Virus record (IMG/VR): IMGVR_UViG_3300030330_003269
Coordinates: 32,766-96,765 of that record
Length of the DNA stretch: 64,000 nt
Source of the DNA: a virus
Lineage: Duplodnaviria > Caudoviricetes
Reading direction: 5' to 3' (one strand)
Each line of letters opens with the position of its first letter. The stretch's first letter is position 1. Shown here piece after piece: positions 6,003 to 32,724 of this stretch. Under the pieces are notes generated by a model that was given only the letters and a program-made list of their open reading frames with translations, made no database searches and had not been told where the DNA came from. A program made the position numbers and the translations under genes.

Positions 6003-6013
6003 GGTAAATCACC

Positions 6014-7243
6014 TCAGTTAAATCCTCCAGCCATTTTATGAATCTCCGACCAATCCATCTCGGCCAATTCATCCATAGTTGGGAGTTTGATTTGGGCTTC
6101 TTCTTGAGCCTTAATAATTTGGTTCTTCTCAGCCGTCAAGGACTTGCGAAGAGAAGCAAATTCATTCTTAAGAGAAGCAATTTCGGAAGCCGCATCATAT
6201 TGCGACTTTGCGAGGATGTTCTCTCTTTGGGAAGTTTCAGCCTTAAAGCGAGCCTCAAACTGCTTTTGAAGGTTGTCATAAGCCAACTTCTCCAATTGTT
6301 CTTGACGGAAAGCATCGTAAGCCTTCTCAATGTTAGCAACGCTCAAATCAAGCGTTTCTAACTCATCGTTGTTAAATGCCTTAACAACAGGAAGGTCGCT
6401 GGCTCTTGGCTTGCCGTTGTCAATAACGATTCTGTCGGCAGGTTCACCGATTTCAACGCCAGCACCATCAAGGGTAGAAAGAAGGGCTTTTGCCTCTTCA
6501 TCACGATACATCTTTTCATCCTCATCCATGAGTTTTTCGGACATCATCTTTTCATCTTCGTCCTCCATTTTCTCATCCATGAGTTTTTCAGACATCATCT
6601 TTTCATCCTCATCTTCCATCTTTTCGTCCATTTCTTCCTTACGCAGAGTATTAACCTCTGCCATAAGTGCGTCCAGTTCTTCTAAAGCCTTTTCAATTTT
6701 GCTCATGTTTTTCACCTTTTTTTCTTGTTTAAGAATATCAAACTTTGCTTCGGGGTTAATTCCTTTTTCACAGATAGTAACTTCATGTAATTCAAGTTTG
6801 CTAATTTCGTTAAATTCACCTAATTCTGGATTAGTCTTCTTTGTTTTTTGTAAAGCCTGTCCTCCAATACTAAATGACCTAAGCGAACCTTTTCTAATTC
6901 CTCTATTAATTTCCTTTGCTTTTTCAATATCATCTCTTAATTTGATTACCACAAAGAATCCAACATCATCAACTTCAGTTTTCCACAACTTTCCGTTTTT
7001 GTCTCGGTATGATTTTACTACTTCTCCAACTTGAACATTTGAATGATTAGTCATTACATTTCTAAACTTGGGGTTTTCCATGTATTTTTCAACTGCTTCC
7101 TCCAATGCTTTGAGTGTGATTAAATCATTTTGCTTATCAACGATTTCAATGCTTGCATATCCTCCAATCATTAAATCGTCGCTTTTTAGAATCCTGAAAT
7201 CTTGAGTGTTGTTCATCATCACCGAGGAAGTCATTCTTCTCAA
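6014..7243 (-). CDS. prohead protease fused to scaffold domain
   Basis: HK97-type protease motifs IGGYAS..VDKQND, catalytic His (TNHS), SFSIGG, LHEVTICEKGINP; acidic coiled-coil C-terminal half. Confidence 0.9.
   Translation of the reverse strand: MRRMTSSVMMNNTQDFRILKSDDLMIGGYASIEIVDKQNDLITLKALEEAVEKYMENPKFRNVMTNHSNVQVGEVVKSYRDKNGKLWKTEVDDVGFFVVIKLRDDIEKAKEINRGIRKGSLRSFSIGGQALQKTKKTNPELGEFNEISKLELHEVTICEKGINPEAKFDILKQEKKVKNMSKIEKALEELDALMAEVNTLRKEEMDEKMEDEDEKMMSEKLMDEKMEDEDEKMMSEKLMDEDEKMYRDEEAKALLSTLDGAGVEIGEPADRIVIDNGKPRASDLPVVKAFNNDELETLDLSVANIEKAYDAFRQEQLEKLAYDNLQKQFEARFKAETSQRENILAKSQYDAASEIASLKNEFASLRKSLTAEKNQIIKAQEEAQIKLPTMDELAEMDWSEIHKMAGGFN
6508..6632 (-). repeat. 51-bp coding tandem repeat in scaffold (MDEKMEDEDEKMMSEKL x2 plus partial)
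   Basis: Visible in both DNA and protein. Confidence 0.85.
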
Positions 7244-7277: not shown

Positions 7278-9800
7278 CTATTCGTTGGTAGGAATGGGCA
7301 ACTTGTTATACCTATCTTCGTAAATGTTCCACTTTCCTGTGTCCGAGTCGGTGTCTGCTGGCTTTTGTTTATATCCAGTCCAAGCAAGCCACATTCTTTC
7401 TCCTTTAACAGGAATGACTCTAATATGTAATTTAGTTTCAAACTTATTCCCTTCTAAGAAATATTCATGATAGCCATCTTTTTGAACACCAAGTTTGATT
7501 TTACCAGAATCAATGACTTTTCCTCTTTCAACATTCTTTGAAACTTCTGCTGGATATTTACCAGCCGCTCCGAATAAATCAAAGAGTTCTTCTTCATTCT
7601 CTAAATCAATAGTCCAATGCATTACTTCATCTTCAACTTTAATGCTCAAGTGAACTCTATTATCCTCTCTAGCATAGATTTTAAAATTACCTTCTTGGTA
7701 TTCTTTTGGTGTTTTGTATTGTTTTATGATTTCTTCATTTTGTAAAATTACATCGGGGTCTGCGTGTAGTTTTCCATTAACCATAGAAAGGTGTTCTCTT
7801 TCTTGCGCCCAACTGCCTAACTTAGATTGCTTAGAATCCAAAATATCTTCATAAGTTTCCTTCATGTTTCTCATTAAGAAATCATGAACATCTTTAACAC
7901 TTCTATCTCCTTTTTCTTGCAAATAATTAACAATAGAAACAGTAAGTTTTCCTTGCTTTGTTTTCATAATTTCTTCTGCTTGAGTTTTCCAAAGGTCAAT
8001 GTCTTGTAAAGCATTCTTTGACATTAGATTATTTTCTTCAAAACCATAGATAGTAAATCCATTCATGTCATACTTGATAATAGCATTGGCTTCTCCATGA
8101 ATATGGTCTGTAATTTTAACTCCTTTCGTAAAGGCTTCAACATCATAGTTTAGAGATTTTTTAGTATCTTGAGATAATAGTTCTAAAGTGACTAGTTTAT
8201 CTGGGTGTTCAACCTCTGGAACTTCAATTACTTTAGCAGAGAATAAACTATACCCTTCACCTTTCTTTTTAACTTCATCCACTTTTACTCTAATAATATC
8301 CCCAACATCAACAGAAATCTTAGTGTTCAATGCTTTTCCTACATTTAAATACATTCTTCCTTCAATTTCTTGAAGGTTCTTCATTTCTTCATTAATTGGG
8401 CCGATACCTACTGTATAGGAATATAATTTAGATTTTGTTTTAGATTTGTCTAAAACGATAACATCTAAATCAACAAATTTCTTTAACTTAATCCACTTCG
8501 GATTCTTTTTTGTTCCTACATAATAAGTTGAAGTAGCGTCTTTAATAACTACTCCCTCAGATGTTGGCATTTGCATAATCTGTTCAGCGTATTCTTTTAA
8601 GTCCTTTAGACTGTCTGCCTGACGAGTATCTTTCTTTGAAGGAAAATCAATTGCTTCGGAAGATTTAGAAGAATAGTTATTGAATAGAGTTGTCATTCTC
8701 ACTTCAAGTTCTTCTTCCATCATATTTTGAGATTCATGTCTCATAATATCAAAAACATGACACCTTAGTTTAGCATCTTTATATTTATTTTTAAATACAT
8801 GAGCGATAGTATCTGCACGATGAAGAGGTTCATCACCATCAAACAAGATTAGTTCCGCATCAAGAATACAATCACCATATTCCTTTTTCTTAAGTTCTTC
8901 AACCTGTTCTTTACATTTATCAGTAATATCCTTTTCATTATAAGAAAAGACCTTAATGTTATTATCAATCTTATGTAATTGAACTCTCATGCCATCATAT
9001 TTTTCTTGAATATACCAATTGCCACTAAATCCTTTCAATTCATTAATGTCATCAATTTCAAAAATTCTATACATGGGTTTATTTGGAATAATAAAATCAC
9101 TTTGTGCTTTTTTCTCGGAAGACTTCTTTTCTTCCTTTTTCATATCAATATCTTTAAGTTCTTCAAATTCTTTTTCTGTGTTTTGAGAAAGCATAATTAA
9201 TTCTAACATATCCATAGCGGCCTTTACTTTTGATTCAACCTTCTTTGAGTCTTTTCCATCCCCGTAATGCTCCGTAATGTAGAGGGCCACATCGTCCACT
9301 TCTAGGTCAAGTCCTTGAAGACCCGCCGTAATTCGGTCAGGTTCCATGTCTTTAATGCTCAAAACCTCTTCGGAAAGCGTTTTATTGTCGTCTCTTATAG
9401 CATAATGAACAAATTTAACCATTGATTCAGGATTAGTCATTAATTCTTCCAAGACTCCATCACCAAAGGAAGCGGCGAAGGGGTCGGCCACCAGCGACGA
9501 AGTATAGCGAATTAATTTTATTTTCTTGTAAAGTTCCTTTGCTTGAGGAGATTTAGGGTCTTTTGCTTCCTTAGCATCTAAGTCCTTCTCGTCAATAAAG
9601 TTTTTTAATTCTTTTCCAGCAGCATCTAATTCTTCATATGATTCCCTAATCATATCAACTGCTTTACGCCAACGACCCCCGTATTCATCGGGGTCTTCAT
9701 TAGCAGATAAATAAGCAACTCTGGTCTTTTCAAAAAGACGAAGCAGTTCAACAGAAGGCTGCTTATCTTTCTCAATTGACCCAAGTTTCATTGATACCAC
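7278..9800 (-). CDS. ATP-dependent DNA ligase-domain protein in head module, with C-terminal LigD phosphoesterase-like region
   Basis: Motif I EKYDG, ILDAE, VFDI, EGVVIK, WIKLK and OB domain; C-terminal 150 aa resemble a degenerate LigD PE domain. Confidence 0.85.
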   Translation of the reverse strand: MVSMKLGSIEKDKQPSVELLRLFEKTRVAYLSANEDPDEYGGRWRKAVDMIRESYEELDAAGKELKNFIDEKDLDAKEAKDPKSPQAKELYKKIKLIRYTSSLVADPFAASFGDGVLEELMTNPESMVKFVHYAIRDDNKTLSEEVLSIKDMEPDRITAGLQGLDLEVDDVALYITEHYGDGKDSKKVESKVKAAMDMLELIMLSQNTEKEFEELKDIDMKKEEKKSSEKKAQSDFIIPNKPMYRIFEIDDINELKGFSGNWYIQEKYDGMRVQLHKIDNNIKVFSYNEKDITDKCKEQVEELKKKEYGDCILDAELILFDGDEPLHRADTIAHVFKNKYKDAKLRCHVFDIMRHESQNMMEEELEVRMTTLFNNYSSKSSEAIDFPSKKDTRQADSLKDLKEYAEQIMQMPTSEGVVIKDATSTYYVGTKKNPKWIKLKKFVDLDVIVLDKSKTKSKLYSYTVGIGPINEEMKNLQEIEGRMYLNVGKALNTKISVDVGDIIRVKVDEVKKKGEGYSLFSAKVIEVPEVEHPDKLVTLELLSQDTKKSLNYDVEAFTKGVKITDHIHGEANAIIKYDMNGFTIYGFEENNLMSKNALQDIDLWKTQAEEIMKTKQGKLTVSIVNYLQEKGDRSVKDVHDFLMRNMKETYEDILDSKQSKLGSWAQEREHLSMVNGKLHADPDVILQNEEIIKQYKTPKEYQEGNFKIYAREDNRVHLSIKVEDEVMHWTIDLENEEELFDLFGAAGKYPAEVSKNVERGKVIDSGKIKLGVQKDGYHEYFLEGNKFETKLHIRVIPVKGERMWLAWTGYKQKPADTDSDTGKWNIYEDRYNKLPIPTNE

Positions 9801-12957: not shown

Positions 12958-13182
12958 TCAAAAAGGAATATTTTCTTTTCTGTTCTTTTGTTTTGGAGGC
13001 AAGGTGATAACATCAGGAACATCTGCTGAATGCAGTTTCTTTTTAACGCTAGTATCTTGGGGAATACCTACACTAAAATCCTTTGTTGGTTTTAATTTTG
13101 TGTTGGCATTTGCGTTAATCGCCCTTACTTGAGCAAGTTCCTTTGCTAACCTTACTTCCTTTTGTTTCATATCTTCTGTCAT
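12958..13182 (-). CDS. hypothetical protein
   Basis: 74 aa, TAATG-coupled to portal. Confidence 0.65.
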   Translation of the reverse strand: MTEDMKQKEVRLAKELAQVRAINANANTKLKPTKDFSVGIPQDTSVKKKLHSADVPDVITLPPKQKNRKENIPF

Positions 13183-14819
13183 TAACCCACTCTCCTTTCT
13201 GTTCTTCGGTCTGTATTTTGGTTTCCCGCATCAACGGGTAATCCTGTAAGTCTCTTATCTGGCCCTACGCTCATTGAGGCTTTATTTCTTGTGGCTGGCG
13301 GGTTTTCCTGTGGCTTTCCTCCGCCTTGCATGGCCTGTTCCTGCATTTGTCCCAACTGCGAAGCATCAATGTTTGTTCCAGCATAAGGGTCAGTTTTTGC
13401 ATCACCTTCGCCTTCTTGCGGCTTGGGTTCTTGGGGTTCGGGCTTCTTGAAAGTAAATTGTCCATCCTCGTCCATATCAACCTCAAATCCTAAATTCTTC
13501 GTTGATGCTGCAATATTGACTTCAATTTCACGCTTACGAAGAACAGCAATTTCATCTTCTTCTTCACTTGGGGGTAATTTAAGTTTCCAATCAGTAATAC
13601 CAAATTGTTTTACAAGGAATGGGAAAACATAATTATTATACACAGTTTGCGCCTTTTGAACTGCTCTGTTCGTAACTAAAATCTGCATACCTTCATTGTT
13701 TAATCCGCCGCTTGTAGTATTATCAGCCATGAAGACTTTGCTTACACCATAAAAAGCAGAAATTCTATCTCTTAAATCATCTTTGACAGAAACATAGTCC
13801 ATTTCCTTTAGACTATCCATGAACTTAATCCATTCAACTCCACCCTTTCCTCCTTCTGCTTCAATTCCCATAACAGGAATAAAGTGTGGGTCTGCTTCCA
13901 TCTTTTCTTTAACAGACCGCCAAAAGGCTCGCATTGAATCCATATTTCTTGTTTGAACGGCTAAAAGACCTCTCGGCATACGGCTCTTTGTATAAGATGA
14001 ATTGACATAGTTTTCCATAGCAATAAGAGTCATCATAGAATTAAACAAAGTAATGACAGGCGATTGACCATAAAGACGAGAAGGACTATATTTACTAAAA
14101 TGCAATACCTCTCCCTTCAAAAAGTATTGGTCTGTTCCATTTGCTCTATTAACATAATGAACAGGATAAACAGCACCACCACAAGTCCCACAACGCTCAT
14201 GTGGTTCAGTAGTGATAAAATCTCTATGATTAACACAGGTGAATCCCTTAGTTCCTCTTTGACCTAATTCATCAGAATAAATAAACATAGTTACTGGGTC
14301 GCCACGATAAAGTTCTTTAATGCGATGCATTCTAATTTTTTGATTACCGTCAATAAAATATTCTTTAACAAGGACAATATAAGCATCATCCATAATATTC
14401 AAATCGTCTTCTAATTCTTGAAGAACATCAATAAATAACTGCTCTGACTTATTAACATATCCTTCAATAAATTTTTCAGCATATTCTAATTGTTTTGCAT
14501 CGGGAATATCTAATTCCAAATGACCACAACGAGCGCATTCTTGAACAGGTCTTTGATGTTCTTTACCGCAGTTCTTACATTTTGCTTCGTATGCCTTTTC
14601 CCAGACATATCCTCTTCGGAAAACTTCTTGCTTTAATTGAGTAATGCAAGTTCTCCCAATAACTGATTGATTAATGATGTTATACAACAAAGGGCCAGTC
14701 ATCATATGACGATTTTCTCTTTCTTGAATACCCATGTTATATACGGTTCTATCCGCAGGTTTGGGAGTTTGTCTCCTAAACAGGTTTGTAAAACTGAATC
14801 TTCTTTTTTCATCAGCCAT
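13182..14819 (-). CDS. portal protein with Zn-ribbon insertions
   Basis: Position; portal-like LHFSKYSPSRLYGQSP, PRGLL, ISAFYGVSKVFM; CKNC/CARC and CVNH/CGTC. Confidence 0.85.
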   Translation of the reverse strand: MADEKRRFSFTNLFRRQTPKPADRTVYNMGIQERENRHMMTGPLLYNIINQSVIGRTCITQLKQEVFRRGYVWEKAYEAKCKNCGKEHQRPVQECARCGHLELDIPDAKQLEYAEKFIEGYVNKSEQLFIDVLQELEDDLNIMDDAYIVLVKEYFIDGNQKIRMHRIKELYRGDPVTMFIYSDELGQRGTKGFTCVNHRDFITTEPHERCGTCGGAVYPVHYVNRANGTDQYFLKGEVLHFSKYSPSRLYGQSPVITLFNSMMTLIAMENYVNSSYTKSRMPRGLLAVQTRNMDSMRAFWRSVKEKMEADPHFIPVMGIEAEGGKGGVEWIKFMDSLKEMDYVSVKDDLRDRISAFYGVSKVFMADNTTSGGLNNEGMQILVTNRAVQKAQTVYNNYVFPFLVKQFGITDWKLKLPPSEEEDEIAVLRKREIEVNIAASTKNLGFEVDMDEDGQFTFKKPEPQEPKPQEGEGDAKTDPYAGTNIDASQLGQMQEQAMQGGGKPQENPPATRNKASMSVGPDKRLTGLPVDAGNQNTDRRTERRVG

Positions 14820-18980: not shown

Positions 18981-20411
18981 TCAAAAGTTCAAGCCTATGG
19001 AGTTCATTCTTTGCGGGTTTTGACCTCCGCCGCCATCGTCAAATAACCCCAAATCATCTAAGAGAATAAACGCTTCGGAGGCTTGATAGGTGGCGGCATT
19101 CGCTAAGGCAAGACTCATCACCATGTCGTCATGCGCCCCGATTCCCTCAAATTTCCCTCGCTCAGTAATCGCAAACATTGACATTTCTTCAATCAATATG
19201 GATGAAACCCTCCTACTCTCTTCGTTCCCATAAGGGAAATTGATTTTACCGTTTTCAAGTGTCATTTGTAAATTGAGAATAATCTCTTGTTTCTTTCTTC
19301 GTGTCGTATCAAAGTCATGAACATTTAAATCTGCAACTTGACGAAGTTCTTGAGTAAATGATTTTGCAAATGTATTTGTTTCAAATAAGATAACTTCGGG
19401 TCGGAACAATTGACCAATCAATTTTACCTTCTGTATGTTCTCTCGGAATTGAACATTTTTAGACCTATCAACATAGACAATAGATTTATTTTCATCTTCA
19501 TCCATTTCAATAACAGTAATCACATTGTAGTCGCCATCTGTTGAAATAGCGGGGTCTACACCAACAAAGTATTTATATCCGTCTCTTCTCAAAGGTTTTA
19601 AAACTAAGTCTTTATTCTTTGCATTATCTAAATGTTCGGGATTAAAGAGAGAAGTTCCTGTTGAAATAGGCACACACATATATTCCCGTGTGAACATCAA
19701 TGAACCTACTTCTGCCTTACGAGCCATTAACGCTTCATAGTTCCATCGGTCAGGCCATAACGGTTCGTTTAATGCATTTAAACATGGGTATGTTCTAACG
19801 GTATAAGCAGCATTTTCTGATAACTGCTGATAAATATCTGTATAACTGAACGGCGTTCCAATAACACGCAAAGATGCAGTATGGTGAAGTGTAGGAATCA
19901 TATCACCATAAAACCAATCAGTCACTTTTTGAATACCAGTCATACTAAACTCTTTCAAAGGGTCGTCAATGATAATTTCTTGAGGGTGCAGACCACGAAT
20001 CTGTGAACCAACAGAACGCTCAAGGATTTGATTTCCATTTGTTAATGTAATGTTTCCAATAGCCCAACCTCTTGCGGGTTTGAATTTCTTGAGCATTGGG
20101 TGGGTGAACATCTTATCAATATCTCTCATGTGAACGAGAGTCTGCTTTTGGTTAGAAGAAATATAAAGCATTTGATATGGTGGCTCTTCAAAAATAAGTT
20201 TCCATACAACCCATGAATGCATAAAAACAGATTTACCGTGGTCACGACTACAAATGATAACTGTTCTTTGTGTCTCATTCATTAACTGATGCCATTCTTG
20301 AATATAAGAAGGAAAGTCAAAACCAAGCACATTTTGGAAAAAATACGGAAAAGAATTTTTGGACAGGCGCATATCCATCTCATGTTCAAAATTAAACGCC
20401 TCCACTTCCAT
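18981..20411 (-). CDS. terL: terminase large subunit
   Basis: Walker A SRDHGKS, Walker B IIIDD, GTP coupling motif, nuclease GVDPA and HDDMVMS. Confidence 0.93.
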   Translation of the reverse strand: MEVEAFNFEHEMDMRLSKNSFPYFFQNVLGFDFPSYIQEWHQLMNETQRTVIICSRDHGKSVFMHSWVVWKLIFEEPPYQMLYISSNQKQTLVHMRDIDKMFTHPMLKKFKPARGWAIGNITLTNGNQILERSVGSQIRGLHPQEIIIDDPLKEFSMTGIQKVTDWFYGDMIPTLHHTASLRVIGTPFSYTDIYQQLSENAAYTVRTYPCLNALNEPLWPDRWNYEALMARKAEVGSLMFTREYMCVPISTGTSLFNPEHLDNAKNKDLVLKPLRRDGYKYFVGVDPAISTDGDYNVITVIEMDEDENKSIVYVDRSKNVQFRENIQKVKLIGQLFRPEVILFETNTFAKSFTQELRQVADLNVHDFDTTRRKKQEIILNLQMTLENGKINFPYGNEESRRVSSILIEEMSMFAITERGKFEGIGAHDDMVMSLALANAATYQASEAFILLDDLGLFDDGGGGQNPQRMNSIGLNF

Positions 20412-20417
20412 TTAATT

Positions 20418-21257
20418 TCACTCCTCTTTGCCCATAGTCCAATAAGTAGTTCTTAAAATAGGAGAGGTGCTAGACAGACCATAAAGACTGACATTACCTT
20501 TAACACCCTGCTTAGCCTTTGGATAATAACCATATTTTCTCATAAGTTTAGTATAAGGCATAAATGTCATATGATTATCTTTTATTCTTCTTAATTGTGC
20601 CTTTTCTGAATGATTTCCATATGCGATAATAAGTTCTCGGTATTCTTTTGCAATTCTTTTCATTAGGTCTTTATTTTCAATACCCTTTCCGTCTAAATCT
20701 TCCACAATTTTTCTTACTGCTGCTTTAATAAATTGAAAATTATATTTTTTTTTAAGAATAGAAAACCAACTGGCCTGTTTATGAATCATCCACTTTTGAA
20801 CTTGGTCTGCATAAGTTAATCCTTCTAAATCTTGTTGAGAATCTTCAGGAAGTTCACTAATATTCATATCACCGAACCCTCTATTTCTATATGTGTTAGC
20901 AATTTTATCATTCGCAATATTCACATATAAAGTATTAGAACCCTTTTCTGCAATAATCTTATCAACTAATATTCCCGAAAGACCCCGACCTCTAAACTCA
21001 TCTCTTACATGAATACCTGCGCCAAGCAACTTACCCTTGTGTTTTGAAAATCCAATCACACCAACTGGTTTATCTTCATAATAAGCAACAAACATTGTTG
21101 CAGGAGCAGTAGCCCAAGAAGAATCACGGGACATTGAACGATAGCGCATTCTTCTTTTTTGATAATCAAAATAGCCATCGTCTTGAAAAGCCTTTACTGC
21201 ATCATCCTCAGACATTTCTCTAAAGGAAATATCAGCAGCAGAAAACTTTGAAACCAT
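20418..21257 (-). CDS. GNAT acetyltransferase fused to a WxxILK-led domain
   Basis: IHVRDEFRGRGLS acetyl-CoA motif and YRNRGF; internal SWFSILKK. Confidence 0.85.
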   Translation of the reverse strand: MVSKFSAADISFREMSEDDAVKAFQDDGYFDYQKRRMRYRSMSRDSSWATAPATMFVAYYEDKPVGVIGFSKHKGKLLGAGIHVRDEFRGRGLSGILVDKIIAEKGSNTLYVNIANDKIANTYRNRGFGDMNISELPEDSQQDLEGLTYADQVQKWMIHKQASWFSILKKKYNFQFIKAAVRKIVEDLDGKGIENKDLMKRIAKEYRELIIAYGNHSEKAQLRRIKDNHMTFMPYTKLMRKYGYYPKAKQGVKGNVSLYGLSSTSPILRTTYWTMGKEE

Positions 21258-23843: not shown

Positions 23844-25841
23844 TCAGTCCTCCAGTAGTCCTTCTTCTTTAAATGCGTTAAGTGCTTTGGTTGTATTTTC
23901 TACATTTTTACCTGTCATGTATTTTTCATAATTTTCAGCAATATCTTTCATTTGGAATTCAAATGCCTTAATAATCGCATCTCGTATTCTTTTCAGATAA
24001 TCAGGAATCTTTTTATCCAAGTCTTGAAGCCGTGAAGCGACCTCTTCGCTTTGCGGGTTGGCCTTCACGGACTTAAATACTTCCTTCGGGGTCATGTCAT
24101 TTAATGCGTGGTCAGCCATTCTTGAAAGAAAAGAGATAAAATTCTTTGGGTTTAACTGTTCAAGAGGACTTGCACCAACATCTTTAGAATTAATTAGTTT
24201 ATCCATTTCATCTGCCTTTTGTTTTACAAATTCAGGGAAAGAAGAGCCTGTAATTAAATCTCTTACCTTGGGAATATTACTAAATTCTAAAACATCGTCA
24301 GGTATTTTTTCAATAATAGTATTTGGGGTTAAATTAAGTTTTCTTATTCCATCATCAAATGTTATTTGAACATAGAAAGCAAGGTCGCCCATCTCATCTT
24401 CTTCAACATTTTCTCCTGAATAATCAATATATTGATACTCTAAGTCGTCAGCATCATATATCTTTTCAATAGTAGCCTTCAATTGTTTAAATTCAGAAAC
24501 AGTAAAATAATCCTTCAAAAAGGTTAATTGTTGTCTTCTTGAGATATCTTTTGTATTACTAACTATATTTTTAATGTTTCTAGAGAGTCGCATTTGATTT
24601 CTTATTTCTTTTCTAACTGCCGTTCTTGCTGCTTTAGTATCTGTTCTGCTTTTATTTTCAACTAATTCATTAATAAAAGGCCTGACATTTACATTAAACT
24701 TACGAGAATTATCCTGTCCTAGAAAAATAGATTCTGTAATATCATCAATTACTTCTAATTCAGCCTCTCCATCAGTCTGTGTTTCATTAATACGAAATTC
24801 ATTAAAGAAATTAGAAAACCAATCTTCTTTAAACTCAGTTTTAAGAATTAAAGAAGCCATAGGATTCAAGGCAACCGACTTAGCACCACTACCGCTTTTT
24901 GTTAAAAATAGCATATCTGGGACAGTTTCATCCTCTATATTTGGCCCTAAAGCACTTCTATCAAACTCTTTTGGAAGAAATTTGTCCTTTTTTCCAGCAA
25001 ATTTGCCAGAATTAAGAACATCTATGAATTTAAATACATCGTTTGCATCAAATGTCGCTTTGGCTTTAAATTTTTTGTCAGAAATGAGGAAATTATCAGG
25101 AATTTTTGAAGATTTGCCTCCTTCAACAAAATTTAACCCAACTGATTTCCTTTTTCCAAGAATAGGGGCAAAATGTTCGCTATAAAACTGTGAAACTCCA
25201 GAATCTCCACGAATTTTCTCTTGTAATTGAGTAAAATTCTCAAAATCTGTTAAAATAATGTCTTCACTTAGTTCTCCACCGATGAGTTCAGCAAAAATTC
25301 TTAGTAAATTTTTGTTTTTTGGTGGATTTTTGAAGGTAATGTAGTTTTTTGCACCTAATGTGTTGCTTACAAACAAATATTTTTGTTGAAGTCTTGGCTT
25401 ATTAGACCAAAATGCTAATTTTGTGTTATATTTTGGAGTATTTTTATTGAATTCAGAAAATTCTTGCTTGGCTTCATCGGGTTTTTTATTATTTATCAAA
25501 TCTCTTATCATGTTTAGTTGAGAAATTGCTTCATTTTCTGATAAATACTTCTTATCTGGTTCAATTTCTGAAATAAGTTCTTTTAATTTATTAAATCTTT
25601 CAGTAAATTGTTCCAATGTTGCTTCGCCTGTATCATATTCTTCATAATATTTTTCAGGAGCGTCCTTTAGAGCAGAAAGCGTCCCTCTCAAACTCTTTAC
25701 GAATTTTTTCGAAGTCTTGATTCTATCTAAAATTGTATTGAAATTACCTTCATCCATTAAAGCAGGGAAGAGAAAGTAAGATGGCATATTATCTTCGGGG
25801 ATAAACGGGAGAGGTTTCTTAATAATTGAAAACCAACTCAT
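23844..25841 (-). CDS. large WxxIIK-leader protein
   Basis: True start likely MSWFSIIKK at 25841 behind AGGAGA in the 22-bp repeat. Confidence 0.75.
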   Translation of the reverse strand: MSWFSIIKKPLPFIPEDNMPSYFLFPALMDEGNFNTILDRIKTSKKFVKSLRGTLSALKDAPEKYYEEYDTGEATLEQFTERFNKLKELISEIEPDKKYLSENEAISQLNMIRDLINNKKPDEAKQEFSEFNKNTPKYNTKLAFWSNKPRLQQKYLFVSNTLGAKNYITFKNPPKNKNLLRIFAELIGGELSEDIILTDFENFTQLQEKIRGDSGVSQFYSEHFAPILGKRKSVGLNFVEGGKSSKIPDNFLISDKKFKAKATFDANDVFKFIDVLNSGKFAGKKDKFLPKEFDRSALGPNIEDETVPDMLFLTKSGSGAKSVALNPMASLILKTEFKEDWFSNFFNEFRINETQTDGEAELEVIDDITESIFLGQDNSRKFNVNVRPFINELVENKSRTDTKAARTAVRKEIRNQMRLSRNIKNIVSNTKDISRRQQLTFLKDYFTVSEFKQLKATIEKIYDADDLEYQYIDYSGENVEEDEMGDLAFYVQITFDDGIRKLNLTPNTIIEKIPDDVLEFSNIPKVRDLITGSSFPEFVKQKADEMDKLINSKDVGASPLEQLNPKNFISFLSRMADHALNDMTPKEVFKSVKANPQSEEVASRLQDLDKKIPDYLKRIRDAIIKAFEFQMKDIAENYEKYMTGKNVENTTKALNAFKEEGLLED

Positions 25842-25852
25842 TGTAATCTCTC

Positions 25853-26131
25853 CTATTCCCACACCGAATCTGCCTTTCTAAGAGTCTTTCTAGGCTTAAA
25901 TCTCAAGACATTGTTTCCTCTATCCAACTTACGCCCATACCCTGTTTGCTCTGCTAAAGACTCATCGGTGAAATATAGAAGTCTTCCTCCGAACAAGCGA
26001 ATTAAGTAGTGGGTCTTTCCTTTCTCATTCGCTAGATTTTGAACCATTTCTTTTGCTTCGCCAATAGCGACTCCATCCCTAATCGGGGTCATTTTGCTAG
26101 TATCAATTTTCAGTATATCTTCCCAACTCAT
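25853..26131 (-). CDS. cassette gene, MSWEDILK leader
   Basis: 92 aa between repeats. Confidence 0.8.
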   Translation of the reverse strand: MSWEDILKIDTSKMTPIRDGVAIGEAKEMVQNLANEKGKTHYLIRLFGGRLLYFTDESLAEQTGYGRKLDRGNNVLRFKPRKTLRKADSVWE

Positions 26132-26142
26132 TGTAATCTCTC

Positions 26143-26472
26143 CTACACATTAAAAGGATTAAAGGGTTCTTTTTCTTCTTCTTCTTTTACAGGCTTATCC
26201 AAAAATTGACCGCCTGTGTATTTTGCTTCCTTTCTGGCTTTTTCTTCTCTTAGCCTTTTTTCTTCATTGAGTTTTTTAGTTTCTGCTGCTTTTTTATTAG
26301 CCTGTTGTCGTCTTTCAGGAGAAAGAGGTTTTCTTGGCTTATCAGCATATATTCTTCCAGGTTTTTTTGTTCTTAGAGCCTGTCTTTTTGTCGGGGATGC
26401 GCCATATTCTTTAAAATCAAAAGCATCACCTCTTCCTGCATATCCTCTTTTAATAATGTCCTGCCACTTCAT
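26143..26472 (-). CDS. cassette gene, MKWQDIIK leader, basic
   Basis: 109 aa between repeats. Confidence 0.8.
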   Translation of the reverse strand: MKWQDIIKRGYAGRGDAFDFKEYGASPTKRQALRTKKPGRIYADKPRKPLSPERRQQANKKAAETKKLNEEKRLREEKARKEAKYTGGQFLDKPVKEEEEKEPFNPFNV

Positions 26473-26744
26473 TGTAATCTTTCCTGTATTCTAAAATCTT
26501 CTTGTCTGCTTAAACTGTTCAATAATTCAGTCATATCAAAATCGGGGTTATCTAAATTCTCTTGAGTTAATTGATTAAGAGCATCATCAATTGTTTCTTC
26601 CAAAAGTTCTTTTTGTCTTTGGTATTCGGCCTCAATAAACTCTTCTTGCATCTCTCTAAAAATAGCAATAGAATTGCTAATATCAGGATATTTATTAAAA
26701 TCAATTTGATTTGGGTCTAGTTTCAAAATTTCTTCCCAACTCAT
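26469..26744 (-). CDS. cassette gene, MSWEEILK leader, acidic
   Basis: 91 aa; ends QERLQ encoded by the repeat. Confidence 0.8.
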   Translation of the reverse strand: MSWEEILKLDPNQIDFNKYPDISNSIAIFREMQEEFIEAEYQRQKELLEETIDDALNQLTQENLDNPDFDMTELLNSLSRQEDFRIQERLQ

Positions 26745-26761
26745 TGTAATCTCTCCTGCAT

Positions 26762-26941
26762 TTAAGCCTTAGTATTAGCCTCATCCAAGTATAACTCTAA
26801 TACTTGGTCGGGAGCATTTTTATCATCTGTGCGATATACTCCTTTTTTTCCATCTTCTAAATATTCAACAACATAATATTCTATTCCATCATGTTTTATT
26901 TCTTTAGGGAAGTCTCCCTTTAGTATGCTTTTCCAACTCAT
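26762..26941 (-). CDS. cassette gene, MSWKSILK leader (59 aa, not in ORF track)
   Basis: MSWKSILKGDFPKEIKHDG...EANTKA*. Confidence 0.8.
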   Translation of the reverse strand: MSWKSILKGDFPKEIKHDGIEYYVVEYLEDGKKGVYRTDDKNAPDQVLELYLDEANTKA

Positions 26942-27601
26942 TGTAATCTCTCCTGCATCTTCTGTTTAATATCCAGCCAAATCTCAGGATTGTTCTGTGC
27001 TAACACTTCTTGAACAATTTGCATTTGTGCGACAATAATCGTGTCCTGTCTCTTGTGAATCAATTTACCCTTGAACTCCATAAGATACTTTAAAGATTCT
27101 CTAATCTCTTGCTAACTTGGTAAGAGCGTCAATCATCTTAGGGTCAAGGTCATTCCCCAAATCGTTGAAGACTTGCTCTAAACGCATATCTAACTTTTGC
27201 ACATTGTTTGAAAGCAAATCAACTTCATTTACTTCCTTTTTCGCCAGCATCATGGCGGCGGATTCCTGCACGATTGGCGTTAAGTGGTGTTTGATGTGCC
27301 TACGCACCTGCTCTTTTGTGGTGTTCAGCGCAGAAGAAACAGCCTCAATGGTGATATTACCTTCTTTAATCGCAAGTTCGTAGTGCTTCCTCATGGGGTC
27401 TGTGCATAGAACACAACGAGGATTTGACGACATTTCATAATTCCCCATGTGGTTTCTTTGATGTTGTGCGGCAGTTCCGCTTCTCCATCCATGTTGTGCA
27501 TCCATATCATCACAAGTCATTGAACCCATCTCAAGAAGGGATTCCAACTCTTCTCGGTTGTCTGCTTGACAAAGACCACAACGCTTGCGATTAACTGTCA
27601 T
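26938..27601 (-). CDS. putative terminase small subunit (two CxxC...HxxxH fingers), frameshifted near 27105
   Basis: CGLC..HQRNH and CVLC..HIKHH then helices; frame 1 stops at LARD*, another frame continues IRESLKYLMEF...MQERLQ* to 26938. Confidence 0.6.
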
Positions 27602-27936
27602 TATGGAGAACCCCTATAAAAAATGTCATGTCCTCTTGATAAGTTCACAAGCCCACTACGATACATCATAAATTCATCAGTTCCGATACTTTCTTCCATC
27701 AAATCTAATGTGCTTTGCATAGCAAGCCAAACAGTAGGCTCTTTTGCGATAATCTTGCTCTTATTTGCCATAATTTTTTCTTTTATGTCTTTAAATATTT
27801 TGGTATGTCTTTTAATCTCTTTACCAGTATTTACCATATTTCTATTAAGGCTGGCTTCTTCCATATCTTCGGGAGCATATTTTTCTCCTAATCTACGGGC
27901 TTCATCCATATCAATCTTTAAAACCTCTTTCCACAT
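27601..27936 (-). CDS. MWKEVLK-leader protein
   Basis: 111 aa. Confidence 0.75.
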   Translation of the reverse strand: MWKEVLKIDMDEARRLGEKYAPEDMEEASLNRNMVNTGKEIKRHTKIFKDIKEKIMANKSKIIAKEPTVWLAMQSTLDLMEESIGTDEFMMYRSGLVNLSRGHDIFYRGSP

Positions 27937-27937
27937 A

Positions 27938-29083
27938 TTATTTTCTCCATAAAACCTGTTGCCACATTTTAGAAATAACCTTTTGATTAGGATTCAACTT
28001 AAAGTCATCATGTTGATATGTATCTGGATATTTTTCTTTGGCTGTCTTTCTGTAATCAAAACCACCCCTTGTATCATTTTGCCACGCACGAAAACCATTC
28101 GGTGCTTTGTTAGTTCCTTTTCTTTTTAAGGCTCTATCAACTAATTCAATAAAGACTTCTTTACCTACTGCTTTTGGAAATGAAACTATAGCAATATCAC
28201 CAGCAATAGAATTATCTTCGTCTGCTGGCCCAAGTTTAGCCAGTTCTCTTGCGATGTTCTGGTCTTTATTGGTTAGTCTAAACTTTTGATTTTTAAAATC
28301 TGTTCTAACCTTATTAGTTAATAATCTACCACCTGCGTTCCAAAATGCATTATTACGAACAACTTTATTAAAGTAACTTTGAATTGAACTGAGGTCTTCT
28401 AATTCTTCAGCATCAATACCTGATAAATTTTCAATGCCCAAGTCTTCAATTTCTGGCTTATCAATATCTTCTAAAATATGGAGAAGTCCTCTTGGTCTTG
28501 CGAACTTTGTTGAAGATTCTGAGAAAAGAGCCTGATGTGGCGGATTTTTTCCAGCAAACCATTCATCGTCTGCCTTTGGCACTTTGTTCTTCTTTGCATA
28601 ACTTTCGGTGGCATAATGTCCTTGGACTTTTCTTTCCTTTCTTTTCTGCTCACCTTCACCAACAGGTTTATCTGTGAATAAAATGAACGCAGGGTCAAAT
28701 GCTGGAGACTTTTCACCAATAACATGACCAGTTCCTTTCATGCCCTTTAATGTCTTAGCAAGGGCTTTAATTGTTTTAATGTTTCCAGTAGTCAATAATT
28801 CATTATCAACAAAACCTTCAACTGCAGTCAAAATATCAGCAACACCTTGACCTTCAACATCTTTATTTCTGCTTTTACTTCTTGCCTTTTTAATGTGTTG
28901 TTTAAGAAAAGCATATAATGATGGAACTCTTTGGACTCTCATATCACCTGCGCTGACAGAAAGACAATTATCTCTCCATTCATTAAACTCTTCAACAAAC
29001 CTTTCATTATCAAAGGTTTGGTCAAGAGAGTTTCCTTTATGTTTTTTTGGAGCCTTCTTTTTATCTTCAGGCATATTCTTCAT
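27938..29083 (-). CDS. hypothetical protein with C-terminal MWQQVLWRK
   Basis: 381-aa ORF. Confidence 0.75.
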   Translation of the reverse strand: MKNMPEDKKKAPKKHKGNSLDQTFDNERFVEEFNEWRDNCLSVSAGDMRVQRVPSLYAFLKQHIKKARSKSRNKDVEGQGVADILTAVEGFVDNELLTTGNIKTIKALAKTLKGMKGTGHVIGEKSPAFDPAFILFTDKPVGEGEQKRKERKVQGHYATESYAKKNKVPKADDEWFAGKNPPHQALFSESSTKFARPRGLLHILEDIDKPEIEDLGIENLSGIDAEELEDLSSIQSYFNKVVRNNAFWNAGGRLLTNKVRTDFKNQKFRLTNKDQNIARELAKLGPADEDNSIAGDIAIVSFPKAVGKEVFIELVDRALKRKGTNKAPNGFRAWQNDTRGGFDYRKTAKEKYPDTYQHDDFKLNPNQKVISKMWQQVLWRK

Positions 29084-29597: not shown

Positions 29598-30185
29598 TCA
29601 AGCGTTGGCAAAGATTCTGCTAATGTCTCCTTCAAACCTTTCATTTTCAAAAACTTCGTGAATAAAATGGTCATAGTGGTCAAGTAAATCAATAGAAAGA
29701 TAAGCAACATATGTGCCTCCACCTTTGATATTAAAATTCCCAGGAAGAAGGTCTGCACTAATTGATAAATGAAAAATATAGGTGTCTTCATCGGCACTAA
29801 AGCGAGAAAGCCCAAAATTACTGGTTGGGTGTTTCTTTAATTCCTGTAATATATAACAAGCGGCTTCTTCAGTTATATTATTAAAGGGTTCAAGTATTTT
29901 ATTAAAAAGTCTATATCTTATATAAGTTTCATTTTCAGGTTCTCCTGTTTCAAAAACATATTCTCCTTCACCTAATGTTCTAAAGTCCTCAACTGGCATC
30001 TTTATATTTTTATAGGGATATCTAAAGTAATCTCTAAAATCAAGTTTAGTAAGAACATCTACCATTTTAATTAGGCGTTCCTTACAATTGTCTTCTTCTT
30101 CTATCATAGGCTGATTGAAGTCCAACTGAAAGGTTTTACCTTTTGTTGAAGCGATTTGATTTTTAATAATGCTCCACCAAGTCAT
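29598..30185 (-). CDS. ASTKGK-FQLDF leader family, paralog 1
   Basis: MTWWSIIKNQIASTKGKTFQLDFNQPMIEEEDNC. Confidence 0.85.
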   Translation of the reverse strand: MTWWSIIKNQIASTKGKTFQLDFNQPMIEEEDNCKERLIKMVDVLTKLDFRDYFRYPYKNIKMPVEDFRTLGEGEYVFETGEPENETYIRYRLFNKILEPFNNITEEAACYILQELKKHPTSNFGLSRFSADEDTYIFHLSISADLLPGNFNIKGGGTYVAYLSIDLLDHYDHFIHEVFENERFEGDISRIFANA

Positions 30186-30796
30186 AGTAATTCCTCAATT
30201 GTTTGTTTTAAATTTTTACTAAGCAAATAAATTTCTTTTCCTCTACCTGCTGTTCTGCTTTCTGTAAAGTAAATAGATAGTGAGATTAAAAAGCCGCAAT
30301 AAGCACCGAGGTTTAAATCACGAATTTCAACACCAAAGTATATTGACATATTTCCTGGAACAACTTCATAATTTATTTTAGTCAGTCTTATTTTACTAAA
30401 ATCTCTAAAATTAATTTTTAATGTATAATTATTAAATTCTTCGTGTTTAGTTATATTATCAAATGCTCTTCTGTCCAACATCTCTAAGGCCTTGCAAAAA
30501 ACTTCTTCGGGAATTTTATCTGTGTTTCCTATGTTATGAGTATGATAACCTATAAGAACCCTTTTAAAATCAGGAAAGTCTGTTTCTATTTCCCATCGTT
30601 TTTTAGTGCTTTGTGAAGAACTCGTAGAAAGGATTGAAGTATCTGTTCTTTCGGCTTTATTTATTTTATCTATAATTTCAAAAAAGCGTTTTCTACAATC
30701 ATCCTCTTCTTCAATCATGGGTTGATTGAAGTCTAACTGGAAAGTTTTACCTTTAGTGGAGGCAATCTGGTTTTTAATAATACTCCACCAATTCAA
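30182..30796 (-). CDS. ASTKGK-FQLDF leader family, paralog 2
   Basis: MNWWSIIKNQIASTKGKTFQLDFNQPMIEEEDDC. Confidence 0.85.
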   Translation of the reverse strand: MNWWSIIKNQIASTKGKTFQLDFNQPMIEEEDDCRKRFFEIIDKINKAERTDTSILSTSSSQSTKKRWEIETDFPDFKRVLIGYHTHNIGNTDKIPEEVFCKALEMLDRRAFDNITKHEEFNNYTLKINFRDFSKIRLTKINYEVVPGNMSIYFGVEIRDLNLGAYCGFLISLSIYFTESRTAGRGKEIYLLSKNLKQTIEELL

Positions 30797-31620
30797 AATA
30801 CTAACGCCCCCTGTATAATTTGTTCAAGTTTATCATCTAACTCTGGATTTAATTTACCATCATCTCCATACCTTCCTTTATAGAAAATTCTATGTCTTAT
30901 GTCAGTAGTCGCCAATGGAAGTGATTCAGGGGAATCTTTCAAATAAATAGATATATCATAGGTATAATTATCAAAATTATATTCTTCTTCATTCCCACGA
31001 CTTTTTCCAAGTGTTCTTTTCTCCGTAAGAATTCTATACTTACCATAATCTTCTAATATGCTTTTACTAATAGCAGTATTTTCATATTGTTCTATTGCTT
31101 TACAATAGATTTCATCAGGGATGCTTTCATCAAATAATACAAAAATACCCAGTTCTGGTCTCATTCCAATAGGGTCTCTTTTTTCGTCATAAAAATGGTT
31201 TTGGTCATACGGACTCCAATGCGCGTCTGCCTTTGTAAGTCCTGCAATAGTCAAACTTTTTAATTTATCTTGAACTGCTAGGAATTTTTTCTTACAGTTT
31301 TCTTCCTCTTCTTCAATCATAGGCTGGTTAAAATCTAACTGAAATTGTTTGCCTTTGGTGGAAGCAATTTGTCTTTTGACTAAAGTGCCACTCTTACCTC
31401 TATTTTCTAATATCCGACAAGCGGTTTCTTCAGACAAATTATCTATATCATTGAGAAACAAATCTATGTTCAATAAATTATGTTTTTTATGAGCCCTTCT
31501 AAAAATATTTTTTAATTTTTCTTTGCACGGTTCATCCTCAATCATAGGTTGAGTAAAATCTAATTGGAACTGTTTGCCTTTGGTAGAGGCAACCTGTCGT
31601 TTTAGAATTTCCCACCACAT
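30793..31620 (-). CDS. ASTKGK-FQLDF leader family, paralog 3 (two fused units)
   Basis: Leader at the N-terminus and again internally after TLVK. Confidence 0.85.
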   Translation of the reverse strand: MWWEILKRQVASTKGKQFQLDFTQPMIEDEPCKEKLKNIFRRAHKKHNLLNIDLFLNDIDNLSEETACRILENRGKSGTLVKRQIASTKGKQFQLDFNQPMIEEEEENCKKKFLAVQDKLKSLTIAGLTKADAHWSPYDQNHFYDEKRDPIGMRPELGIFVLFDESIPDEIYCKAIEQYENTAISKSILEDYGKYRILTEKRTLGKSRGNEEEYNFDNYTYDISIYLKDSPESLPLATTDIRHRIFYKGRYGDDGKLNPELDDKLEQIIQGALVF

Positions 31621-31624
31621 AATA

Positions 31625-32215
31625 TCAACCTACAATATTTCTAATTGTTTCGTGTATTTTTTCAATATTTACATATTTTCTAACATTGCTCTTAAATACA
31701 TCATCACTTCTAAACGCAACCGATTCAATTCTTATAGTTGTATGAAAAGCCATTTTTATTCCTGAATCTGAGTCATACCATAAAGAATATACTAATCTTC
31801 CTGTCTTTCCAATTTCTTCAATTCTTACTTGTGCCATTGAAACTTTATCGTTTATTTTAAAATTCTTTTGTGCATTTCGTTTCAGATTTTCTAAAAACCA
31901 ACAGGCTACTTCTTCTGGCATATCGTTTAATATATCAATTTCAGGATTACTTCTAGCAAAAGTCACAGCAACAGCATCTTCCCAATTATTACCATCATTT
32001 ACTTTATAGTTAGTAGAAACATAAGGCCTATCATCAAAACCAATATCTTTCAACAAAAACTGTTTAAAATCTAATTCCCAAAATTTCTTAACAATAGCAA
32101 GAAATTTTTCTTTACAGGTTTCTTCATCTTCTACCATTGGCTCTGAGAAGTCTAATTGAAATGTCTTTCCCTTAGTGGAAGAAATTTGGTTTTTCAGAAT
32201 ATCAAACCAACTCAT
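31625..32215 (-). CDS. ASTKGK-FQLDF leader family, paralog 4
   Basis: MSWFDILKNQISSTKGKTFQLDFSEPMVEDEETC. Confidence 0.85.
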   Translation of the reverse strand: MSWFDILKNQISSTKGKTFQLDFSEPMVEDEETCKEKFLAIVKKFWELDFKQFLLKDIGFDDRPYVSTNYKVNDGNNWEDAVAVTFARSNPEIDILNDMPEEVACWFLENLKRNAQKNFKINDKVSMAQVRIEEIGKTGRLVYSLWYDSDSGIKMAFHTTIRIESVAFRSDDVFKSNVRKYVNIEKIHETIRNIVG

Positions 32216-32724
32216 AGGCTCATCTCCCTATTAGTCCACTCTTCTACAGTATCAATAAATTCATCAGTTTCTTTTTCTACTTTATCGGTTTTTATAGAAA
32301 ATCCAACACTATATATTGTTTCAGGTAAATTTCTACGGTCTATTAAAATACCTGTATATACTACTACTCTGTTATCAAAATATCCACTAGTTACTTGCTT
32401 ATATAATCTAACATAGTAACCATCTAAAGTTACTTCAGTTATACCATACTGCAATTCATTCCATAATCTAATTACCTCACAACAAACTTCTTCAGAAACT
32501 GAAGAAAGTTCACCTTTGAGATTTTGTTCTATAACCCTCCCACCTATACTATTTTCAAGAGGCTTAGATATATTATCCCAATTATTTTTAAACTTCTCAT
32601 ATAATTTAATAAGTTTACGCTTACAATCATCGTCATCTTCAACCATTGGTTGAGAAAAATCAAGTTGAAATTGCTTCCCTTTGGTGGAAGCCATTTGATT
32701 CTTCAAAATAGAGAACCAATCCAA
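32212..32724 (-). CDS. ASTKGK-FQLDF leader family, paralog 5
   Basis: TTG start; MDWFSILKNQMASTKGKQFQLDFSQPMVEDDDDC. Confidence 0.85.
   Translation of the reverse strand: MDWFSILKNQMASTKGKQFQLDFSQPMVEDDDDCKRKLIKLYEKFKNNWDNISKPLENSIGGRVIEQNLKGELSSVSEEVCCEVIRLWNELQYGITEVTLDGYYVRLYKQVTSGYFDNRVVVYTGILIDRRNLPETIYSVGFSIKTDKVEKETDEFIDTVEEWTNREMSL

Follow-up and report, generated by a model that had tools for sequence, protein, structure and literature searches.

Shuffling of gene modules at short repeated motifs has been described for T4-type phages, in which promoter-early stem-loops (PeSLs) place short conserved expression signals around non-essential ORFan genes of a hyperplastic region, and the boundaries of insertions, deletions and replacements between close relatives lie at the motif (Arbiol et al. 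2010, PMC2839356; PMC4122927). Excised mini-circles were demonstrated for PeSLs (PMC2839356; PMC4122927), and the PeSL authors themselves drew the comparison with integrons, a dedicated recombinase not being known (PMC2839356). Likewise, the internal-protein (IP) loci of T-even phages are polymorphic (Repoila et al. 1994, as cited in PMC3012670 and PMC2839356). Here, we describe a locus with likenesses to both in a 64,000-nucleotide stretch of viral DNA, hereafter the window, which comprises bases 32766-96765 of the IMG/VR record IMGVR_UViG_3300030330_003269, a single contig of 96,765 bp rated 100% complete by CheckV. Five minus-strand copies of a 22-bp repeat, AGGAGAGATTACAATGAGTTGG, part four unrelated small genes that follow a conserved gene, which we call the anchor gene. 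In our interpretation, the locus is a hypervariable array of gene cassettes on the late arm of an archaeal tailed virus of the magrovirus type, and its cassettes are probably exchanged in a homology-dependent manner at the repeats.

PeSL shuffling and the T-even IP loci are the closest analogues of this array. It shares with PeSLs the short conserved expression signals around ORFan genes and the homology boundaries at the motif (74% of the ends here, against 4.6% for random positions; see below). A PeSL, however, combines a sigma-70-like promoter with a terminator stem-loop, whereas the magrovirus linker consists of a Shine-Dalgarno (SD) sequence, a spacer, a start codon and leader codons and is unstructured. 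Moreover, this linker overlaps the upstream stop codon, derives from the 3' end of a conserved gene, is found in one array only and belongs to an archaeal virus. With the T-even IP loci, as the citing papers summarize them, the array has in common a plastic locus, diverse proteins, small for the most part, with nothing in common but a short leader at the N terminus, conserved expression elements flanking the locus, and a virus-encoded prohead protease. The two are unrelated in sequence, and the T-even elements are, in those summaries, early promoters with AT-rich stem-loops rather than a repeat of SD, start and leader. Packaging through the capsid targeting sequence (CTS) and removal of that sequence by gp21 were proven for T4 (PMC3012670), whereas both are proposed here by analogy.

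Three further systems offer partial likenesses. The haloarchaeal myovirus HGTV-1 carries a motif of a TATA box and an inverted repeat before its open reading frames (ORFs) (Sencilo et al. 2013, as described in PMC3950731). It is likewise an archaeal tailed virus with a repeated motif before many ORFs, which was proposed to serve expression control and shuffling. That motif is, however, promoter-like and includes an inverted repeat, whereas the magrovirus motif lacks one and reaches into coding sequence, and no comparison of breakpoints is cited in the summary in PMC3950731. The start-associated sequences (SAS) of cluster K mycobacteriophages (Pope et al. 2011, PMC3203893) are asymmetric 13-bp repeats with AGGAG a few nucleotides before the ATG, in one orientation, virus-specific and sometimes overlapping the upstream stop codon, all of which recalls the present repeat. 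Unlike the magrovirus motif, which is confined to one array, SAS are scattered over the non-structural half of the genome and travel with particular gene families; they have not been linked to the exchange of cassettes, nor do they continue into a leader peptide common to the genes. An earlier reading of the window from its sequence alone (the original prediction) had likened the array to an integron. The likeness extends to a one-directional array of unrelated small genes with a recurring site, variable content among relatives and boundaries at the site. It does not extend to an intI-type integrase, to which we found no match, nor to the hairpin-forming imperfect palindromes of attC, and each magrovirus cassette, unlike an integron cassette, brings a ribosome site, a start codon and a leader with it. 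Because integrase and attC-like hairpins are missing, the array is not an integron, and the comparison holds as an analogy only. The new elements are a linker that is translational and partly coding, its origin from the 3' terminus of the conserved gene alongside, its fusion to a protein leader, and its occurrence in an abundant group of archaeal viruses. The two main magrovirus papers that were searched make no mention of the repeat or of the leader.

A motif scan of the complete genome, allowing up to 4 mismatches, placed the 22-mer in the array only, with four exact copies and one with 3 mismatches; shuffled sequences gave 0 matches. Each copy provides AGGAG, a 7-nt spacer, ATG and Ser-Trp codons, and the ORFs that the five copies open, namely the four cassettes and a large protein (Table 1), begin with MSW or MKW. 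The four small proteins showed no mutual similarity even at E<=10 once the leader was trimmed, and their isoelectric points are 4.8, 4.1, 10.0 and 9.5 for cassettes 1 to 4. The anchor gene ends in ...KMQERLQ followed by a TGA that overlaps the next ATG, and these last codons are the source of the repeat. Cassette 2 ends in ...RIQERLQ and its stop codon, the same tail as that of the anchor gene. Directly after the TAA of cassette 1 stands a non-coding ATGC, which makes copy 2 identical to the anchor gene 3' end over 26 nt; judged from its sequence, this ATGC is a remnant of the Met-Gln codons of the anchor gene. The original prediction had described five copies, four of them exact, separating four unrelated genes, a repeat that carries the ribosome-binding site, the start codon and the first leader codons, and an identity of this repeat with the end of the upstream gene that recurs in one cassette; each of these points was borne out. 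In a collection of cellular genomes covering 185,579 species, the 22-mer gave single matches in four Levilactobacillus species (L203-L206) and none in an archaeal genome. We read the Levilactobacillus match as chance, at one conserved bacterial gene start.

The origin of the repeat became clearer from related loci. Since a first set (L001-L058) had been picked by the exact repeat and was thereby ascertained, we left it out of the conservation statistics and took these from 58 loci (within L059-L120) that were fetched through the anchor protein. The first junction, between anchor gene and array, is nearly invariant over ~40 nt and lies within 2 mismatches of the 22-mer in 51 of the 58 relatives, and 60 of 126 internal junctions do so as well. 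At 28 internal junctions the stop and start codons overlap as ATGA, and at 23 of these the upstream cassette ends in [QK]E[RKE]LQ and the stop codon. Where the cassette stop lies earlier, the non-coding remnant TAAATGCAGGAG was kept at 21 of 62 junctions. Such non-coding remnants and shared tails indicate copying and not convergent ribosome sites. Among the leader-tagged ORFs of the same 58 loci, the 13 non-coding nucleotides before the ATG match the motif with at most 2 mismatches in 110 of 156 inside the array and in 0 of 347 outside it. The latter use other SD and spacer sequences, for example GGTGATATT, and therefore the repeat is not generally needed to express tagged genes. The length of the homologous tract varies from 22 to ~30 nt plus the leader, with gradual decay. 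At the level of sequence, these comparisons demonstrate that the repeat derives from the 3' end of the anchor gene and is restricted to the array.

We then located the ends of homology between relatives. In alignments of at least 80% identity among 56 loci, 74% of 572 interior ends fell within 25 bp of a repeat, compared with 4.6% for random positions. Homologous blocks started (left ends) at -20 to +10 and ended (right ends) at +10 to +50 from the repeat start, and endpoints were found at 99 of 150 repeat junctions compared with 29 of 148 other gene starts. Individual pairs illustrate the pattern. L079 equals L082 plus a 413-bp insertion of one cassette between repeat copies, and the repeat is covered by both alignments, which overlap there; the insertions in L105/L106 and L065/L070 are likewise bounded by repeats; and L095/L096, L100/L102 and L059/L062 differ by clean replacements between repeats, the flanks being 94-97% identical. 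The closest IMG/VR relative of the window (L116/L032) is 89% identical up to position 26938 and again from 25854, with an unrelated array in between. A separate metagenome scan with the anchor protein retrieved five Tara/JGI contigs (L207-L211) with anchor genes 93-96% identical to that of the window. All five lose homology at the first repeat (~26930), and L209, L210 and L211 regain it at 25854-25857. L210 has zero cassettes, so that its anchor gene abuts the large protein via a single repeat.

The content of the array changes rapidly, with exchange, gain or loss of entire genes at the repeat in over 100 related viruses. It holds 0-7 cassettes among 58 relatives, three of which have none, and most cassette families are singletons. 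The mean Jaccard index of cassette families was 0.29 for pairs with at least 95% DNA identity in the anchor gene and 0.09 at 90-95%, and only 1 of 18 pairs in the former class had identical arrays. Homologues of cassettes 2, 3 and 4 were found, one each and all within other arrays: that of cassette 2 in L013 (51% amino-acid identity), that of cassette 3 in L059 (86% nucleotide identity, the rest of the array being different), and that of cassette 4 in L060/L033, at ~85% nucleotide identity. Cassette 4 also occurs, at 85% identity and in yet another array, in L207 from the metagenome scan. No homologue of cassette 1 was found in about 200 related loci. The ratio of non-synonymous to synonymous substitution rates (dN/dS), 0.14 for the cassette 3 pair and 0.27 as the median over 100 pairs, shows purifying selection and identifies the cassettes as real genes. 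In two relatives the same cassette family occurs twice in one array, an outcome that unequal exchange would give. Gain and loss of cassettes by recombination at this junction had been part of the original prediction. Gene content among relatives proved variable rather than invariant, and the breakpoints in the statistics, the individual pairs and the five metagenome contigs lay at the repeats rather than away from them, which supports that proposal. Among the assembled sequences, fast turnover with homology boundaries at the repeats is thus established.

The anchor-gene junction, ...AAAATGCAGGAGAGATTACA-ATG-AGT-TGG..., which runs from the anchor tail through the SD AGGAG, its 7-nt spacer and the ATG into the leader codons, has been copied to every cassette boundary, where it offers about 25-50 bp of homology including the leader codons. 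As a mechanism, we propose general homology-dependent recombination at these boundaries, either when related viruses infect the same cell or, unequally, inside replicating genomes or concatemers. Host or viral general recombination functions would act, without a site-specific recombinase, and whole cassettes would be inserted, deleted or replaced as a result. Every product of a crossover in the initiation/leader segment would retain its ribosome site, a start codon in frame, the leader and the coupling of stop and start, so that a swapped gene would be expressed and leader-tagged at once, which would explain the viability of recombinants. That crossovers take place in the repeat itself, and which enzymes carry them out, is our inference. 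In the complete genome, neither Phage_integrase (PF00589), for which 14 of 14 control genomes were positive, nor a resolvase/serine recombinase nor Rad51/RadA gave a match, so the statement of the original prediction that no integrase is seen in the window extends to the whole record. Junction folding in five 70-nt windows was no better than that of shuffles (z -1.1 to +0.8) and revealed no hairpin, and the repeat is asymmetric and always in gene orientation. The lack of a recombinase, the lack of structure, the asymmetry and the variable tract length together favour homology-dependent over site-specific exchange. Magroviruses are reported to encode a RadA-like ATPase that is detectable by profile-profile methods only (PMC5434244). 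Two weak, sub-threshold P-loop matches of the KaiC/RadA and AAA_25 types at genome bases 511-645 and 1760-1876 (L201, L202), both near the left end of the genome and outside the window, one of them running across a TGA, could be this ATPase.

Several points weigh against exchange at the repeats. Most relatives have a diverged sequence at the final junction, where the large protein begins, and the recombinase search yielded only the weak, sub-threshold P-loop matches. A homology of 22-50 bp is short for RadA-type recombination. BLAST ends must sit where similarity stops, and the junction is the only sequence common to unrelated cassettes; the endpoint statistics consequently demonstrate the exchange of whole units and not that the crossover used the repeat. 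All comparisons were made between metagenome assemblies, which may be chimeric at shared sequence, so that exchange is deduced from them rather than observed. For the leader, packaging and cleavage were proven in T4, and a corresponding role here is argued by analogy. Finally, translation could be the main reason why the junction is conserved. In the extreme form of this last objection, the repeat would be nothing but a selected initiation region with a leader, and cassettes would be swapped by illegitimate recombination, with selection filtering the products to gene boundaries. An unstructured AGGAG placed 7 nt before the ATG is what a good initiation region looks like, a role in translation is assumed for the comparable SAS of cluster K mycobacteriophages (PMC3203893), and the forced position of BLAST ends suits this explanation equally. 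We nevertheless consider it unlikely, since the 13-nt motif precedes none of the 347 tagged genes elsewhere and is thus dispensable for tagged expression, the Met-Gln codon remnants at 21 of 62 junctions reflect copying and not convergence, and insertions are flanked by two repeat copies with the alignments overlapping on the repeat. That co-occurring strains were joined at shared 22-50-bp junctions during assembly, and the shuffling is an artefact, is very improbable. Although all compared sequences are short-read metagenome contigs, and chimeras typically form at repeats that do not exceed the assembly k-mer, contigs from different samples agree in their multi-cassette orders (L044/L047/L050, L029/L057 and L021/L049), and cassette-free and multi-cassette arrays both occur. 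A chimera, moreover, requires a cassette already located between repeats in some real genome, even if single contigs may still be chimeric.

A true site-specific system, in which an unrecognised recombinase would cut and join at the repeat as the integron integrase does at attC, could draw on the highly conserved core sequence over diverged genomes and on the many magrovirus proteins without known function. It is equally hard to reconcile with the data: the genome has no tyrosine or serine recombinase match, the repeat is asymmetric, of one orientation and without a hairpin, and a tract that varies from 22 to ~30 nt plus leader and decays gradually suits homology-driven exchange better. It is scarcely credible that the cassettes are tandem paralogues, diverged everywhere except at the N terminus, without any horizontal exchange. 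Such families do exist close by, as the genuine tandem paralogues with a longer shared leader at 29598-32724 illustrate, and two relatives hold one family twice in the array. No similarity links the cassette bodies, however, even at E<=10, and neither their lengths nor their charges agree. The same cassette is found at 85-86% nucleotide identity in otherwise different arrays beside non-homologous large proteins, and the non-coding spacer is identical, in contrast to a dS of 0.47 in a shared cassette. Homology-dependent exchange of whole cassettes at the repeats therefore remains the reading that we prefer.

The array proteins share the leader M-S-W-x-x-I-L-K, and 16 minus-strand ORFs in the genome begin with M(x)Wxx[IVLM][IVLM][KRQ]. 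Over 58 related loci and the window's own region, the gene strand has 394 leader-type starts, compared with 2 for its complement. Looser variants are found between portal and terminase, and the leader is present only on the late, morphogenetic arm, which also encodes the S78 protease-scaffold and the HK97-type capsid protein. In the predicted structure of the large protein, the leader forms a short helix (residues 3-7) followed by a flexible tether and then the folded body. This protein, 600-840 amino acids long in relatives, was modelled with a mean predicted local distance difference test score (pLDDT) of 76; a fold search with the model found nothing in the PDB and only five unnamed viral relatives in BFVD. 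The four cassettes had no meaningful match in Pfam or PHROGs, and cassette 4, the sole one searched against the ESM Atlas, retrieved only unnamed viral clusters at chance-level scores. Motifs conserved among 80 relatives (L121-L200) include MDW[SA][DE]IHKM at the C terminus of the scaffold and, around residues 26-30 in the N-terminal part of the capsid protein, N[QE]LLK (window 4653-7243, minus strand); both loosely resemble W-x-x-I-L-K. We infer that the leader sends its proteins to a common partner. By analogy with the T4 CTS, this partner could be the procapsid, a suggestion to which we give not quite even weight, and the leader would fit a capsid-addressing and possibly protease-processed tag.

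With still more reserve, the array may be a diversification locus for effectors that are loaded into the capsid and delivered to the host, in which one element would serve as ribosome site, start, address tag and recombination site. If so, the locus would be a translational plug-and-play counterpart of the T4 IP loci and PeSLs, of a kind not described for archaeal viruses, and a cassette from a co-infecting relative would be immediately expressed and addressed. Magroviruses rank with the most abundant viruses in the surface ocean, and the Marine Group II archaea that they infect have yet to be cultured. To our knowledge, almost nothing is known about magrovirus variation and the roles of their many ORFans. 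The locus is a delimited hotspot in which gene content turns over much faster than the flanks and whose boundaries are predictable from the 22-mer. The repeat could thus be used as a primer or probe site to amplify and catalogue the accessory gene pool from seawater. The cassettes provide a shortlist of candidate host-interaction or anti-defence proteins, and with the locus as a whole, modular evolution through linkers can be tested in a natural setting among archaeal viruses.

The anchor gene had been labelled terS, a small terminase gene, in the original prediction, and this label found no backing in Pfam, in PDB sequences or in a fold search. The protein matched no Pfam or PHROG family, a tblastn search of GenBank phages gave no match, a profile of 14 family sequences found nothing in the PDB below E 0.1, and the AlphaFold model (pLDDT 65) had no Foldseek match. 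A weak HTH_20 match was obtained for 6 of the 14 family members. The protein contains two Cys-x-x-Cys pairs, weak helix-turn-helix (HTH) signals and a long coiled coil, and the large terminase gene is 6.7 kb away. The apparent architecture of a zinc ribbon or HTH with a coiled coil is compatible with a small terminase and not diagnostic of one. In the window, a deletion of 2 bp near 27105, within 27081-27121, breaks this gene into two ORFs: the sequence there is GCAAGAG--ATTAGAG, as against GCAAGAGAAATTAGAG or GCAAGAGAGATT... in relatives. The gene is intact, with 218-230 amino acids, in all 14 aligned relatives and in the five nearest Tara/JGI relatives, and the split reflects an error of assembly or else a mutation private to this genome.

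Table 1. Positions of the array components and of neighbouring genes in the window.
Feature	Position	Strand	Remarks
Repeat copy 1	26933-26954	minus	exact; native junction, anchor gene TGA overlaps cassette 1 ATG
Cassette 1	26762-26941	minus	59 aa, acidic, leader MSWKSILK
Repeat copy 2	26736-26761	minus	exact 22-mer at 26736-26757 plus ATGC at 26758-26761
Cassette 2	26469-26744	minus	91 aa, acidic, leader MSWEEILK
Repeat copy 3	26464-26485	minus	3 mismatches; both cassette 2 tail and cassette 3 SD/start
Cassette 3	26143-26472	minus	109 aa, very basic, leader MKWQDIIK
Repeat copy 4	26123-26144	minus	exact; cassette 3 TAG overlaps AGGAG of the copy
Cassette 4	25853-26131	minus	92 aa, basic, leader MSWEDILK
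Repeat copy 5	25833-25854	minus	exact; start of the large protein; homology with closest relatives restarts
Large leader-bearing protein	23844-25841	minus	665 aa; constant last array member
Anchor gene	26938-27601	minus	221 aa in relatives; split here into 27101-27601 and 26938-27081
HK97-type major capsid protein	4653-6002	minus	
S78 prohead protease fused to scaffold	6014-7243	minus	
ATP-dependent DNA ligase	7278-9800	minus	inside the structural module
Portal	13182-14819	minus	
Large terminase	18981-20411	minus	
GNAT acetyltransferase	20418-21257	minus	

Magroviruses have been described as tailed viruses of Marine Group II archaea with genomes of ~100 kb and a ligase within the structural module (PMC5434244). 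The present genome matches this type, an assignment that we base on its size and on the ligase in its structural module. In relatives, the conserved gene order runs from a 381-aa gene through the anchor gene, the array, the large leader-bearing protein and an 859-aa gene onward to the terminase.

Some relatives (among them L016, L041, L044 and L050) have a second variable slot, between the 381-aa gene and the anchor gene, with leader-tagged cassettes. The families c58, c66 and c43 occupy this upstream slot in some genomes and the downstream array in others, and their placement on either side of the anchor gene indicates that cassettes move between the two slots. In the window, the 381-aa gene ends in the leader-like ...KMWQQVLWRK and its stop codon, right before the MWKEVLK start of the next gene (27910-27965, minus strand). 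This tail seems to have arisen by tandem duplication of leader-coding DNA and its in-frame fusion to the upstream gene, and may be the footprint of an exchange at a second hotspot.

The 279-aa ORF with the GNAT domain (residues 1 to ~130) continues into an in-frame internal leader motif, ...HKQASWFSILKKK, at residue 164, which no ATG precedes. Its family ranges from 63 to 693 amino acids in relatives, some members having an N-terminal leader, and the ORF looks like a gene fusion. At 29598-32724 (minus strand), four adjoining paralogues of 195, 204, 275 and 196 amino acids and a fifth related ORF form a tandem family. They carry the longer constant leader W..I[IL]K[NR]Q[IVM]ASTKGK.FQLDF and use upstream DNA other than the repeat, which sets this family apart from the repeat-bounded array.

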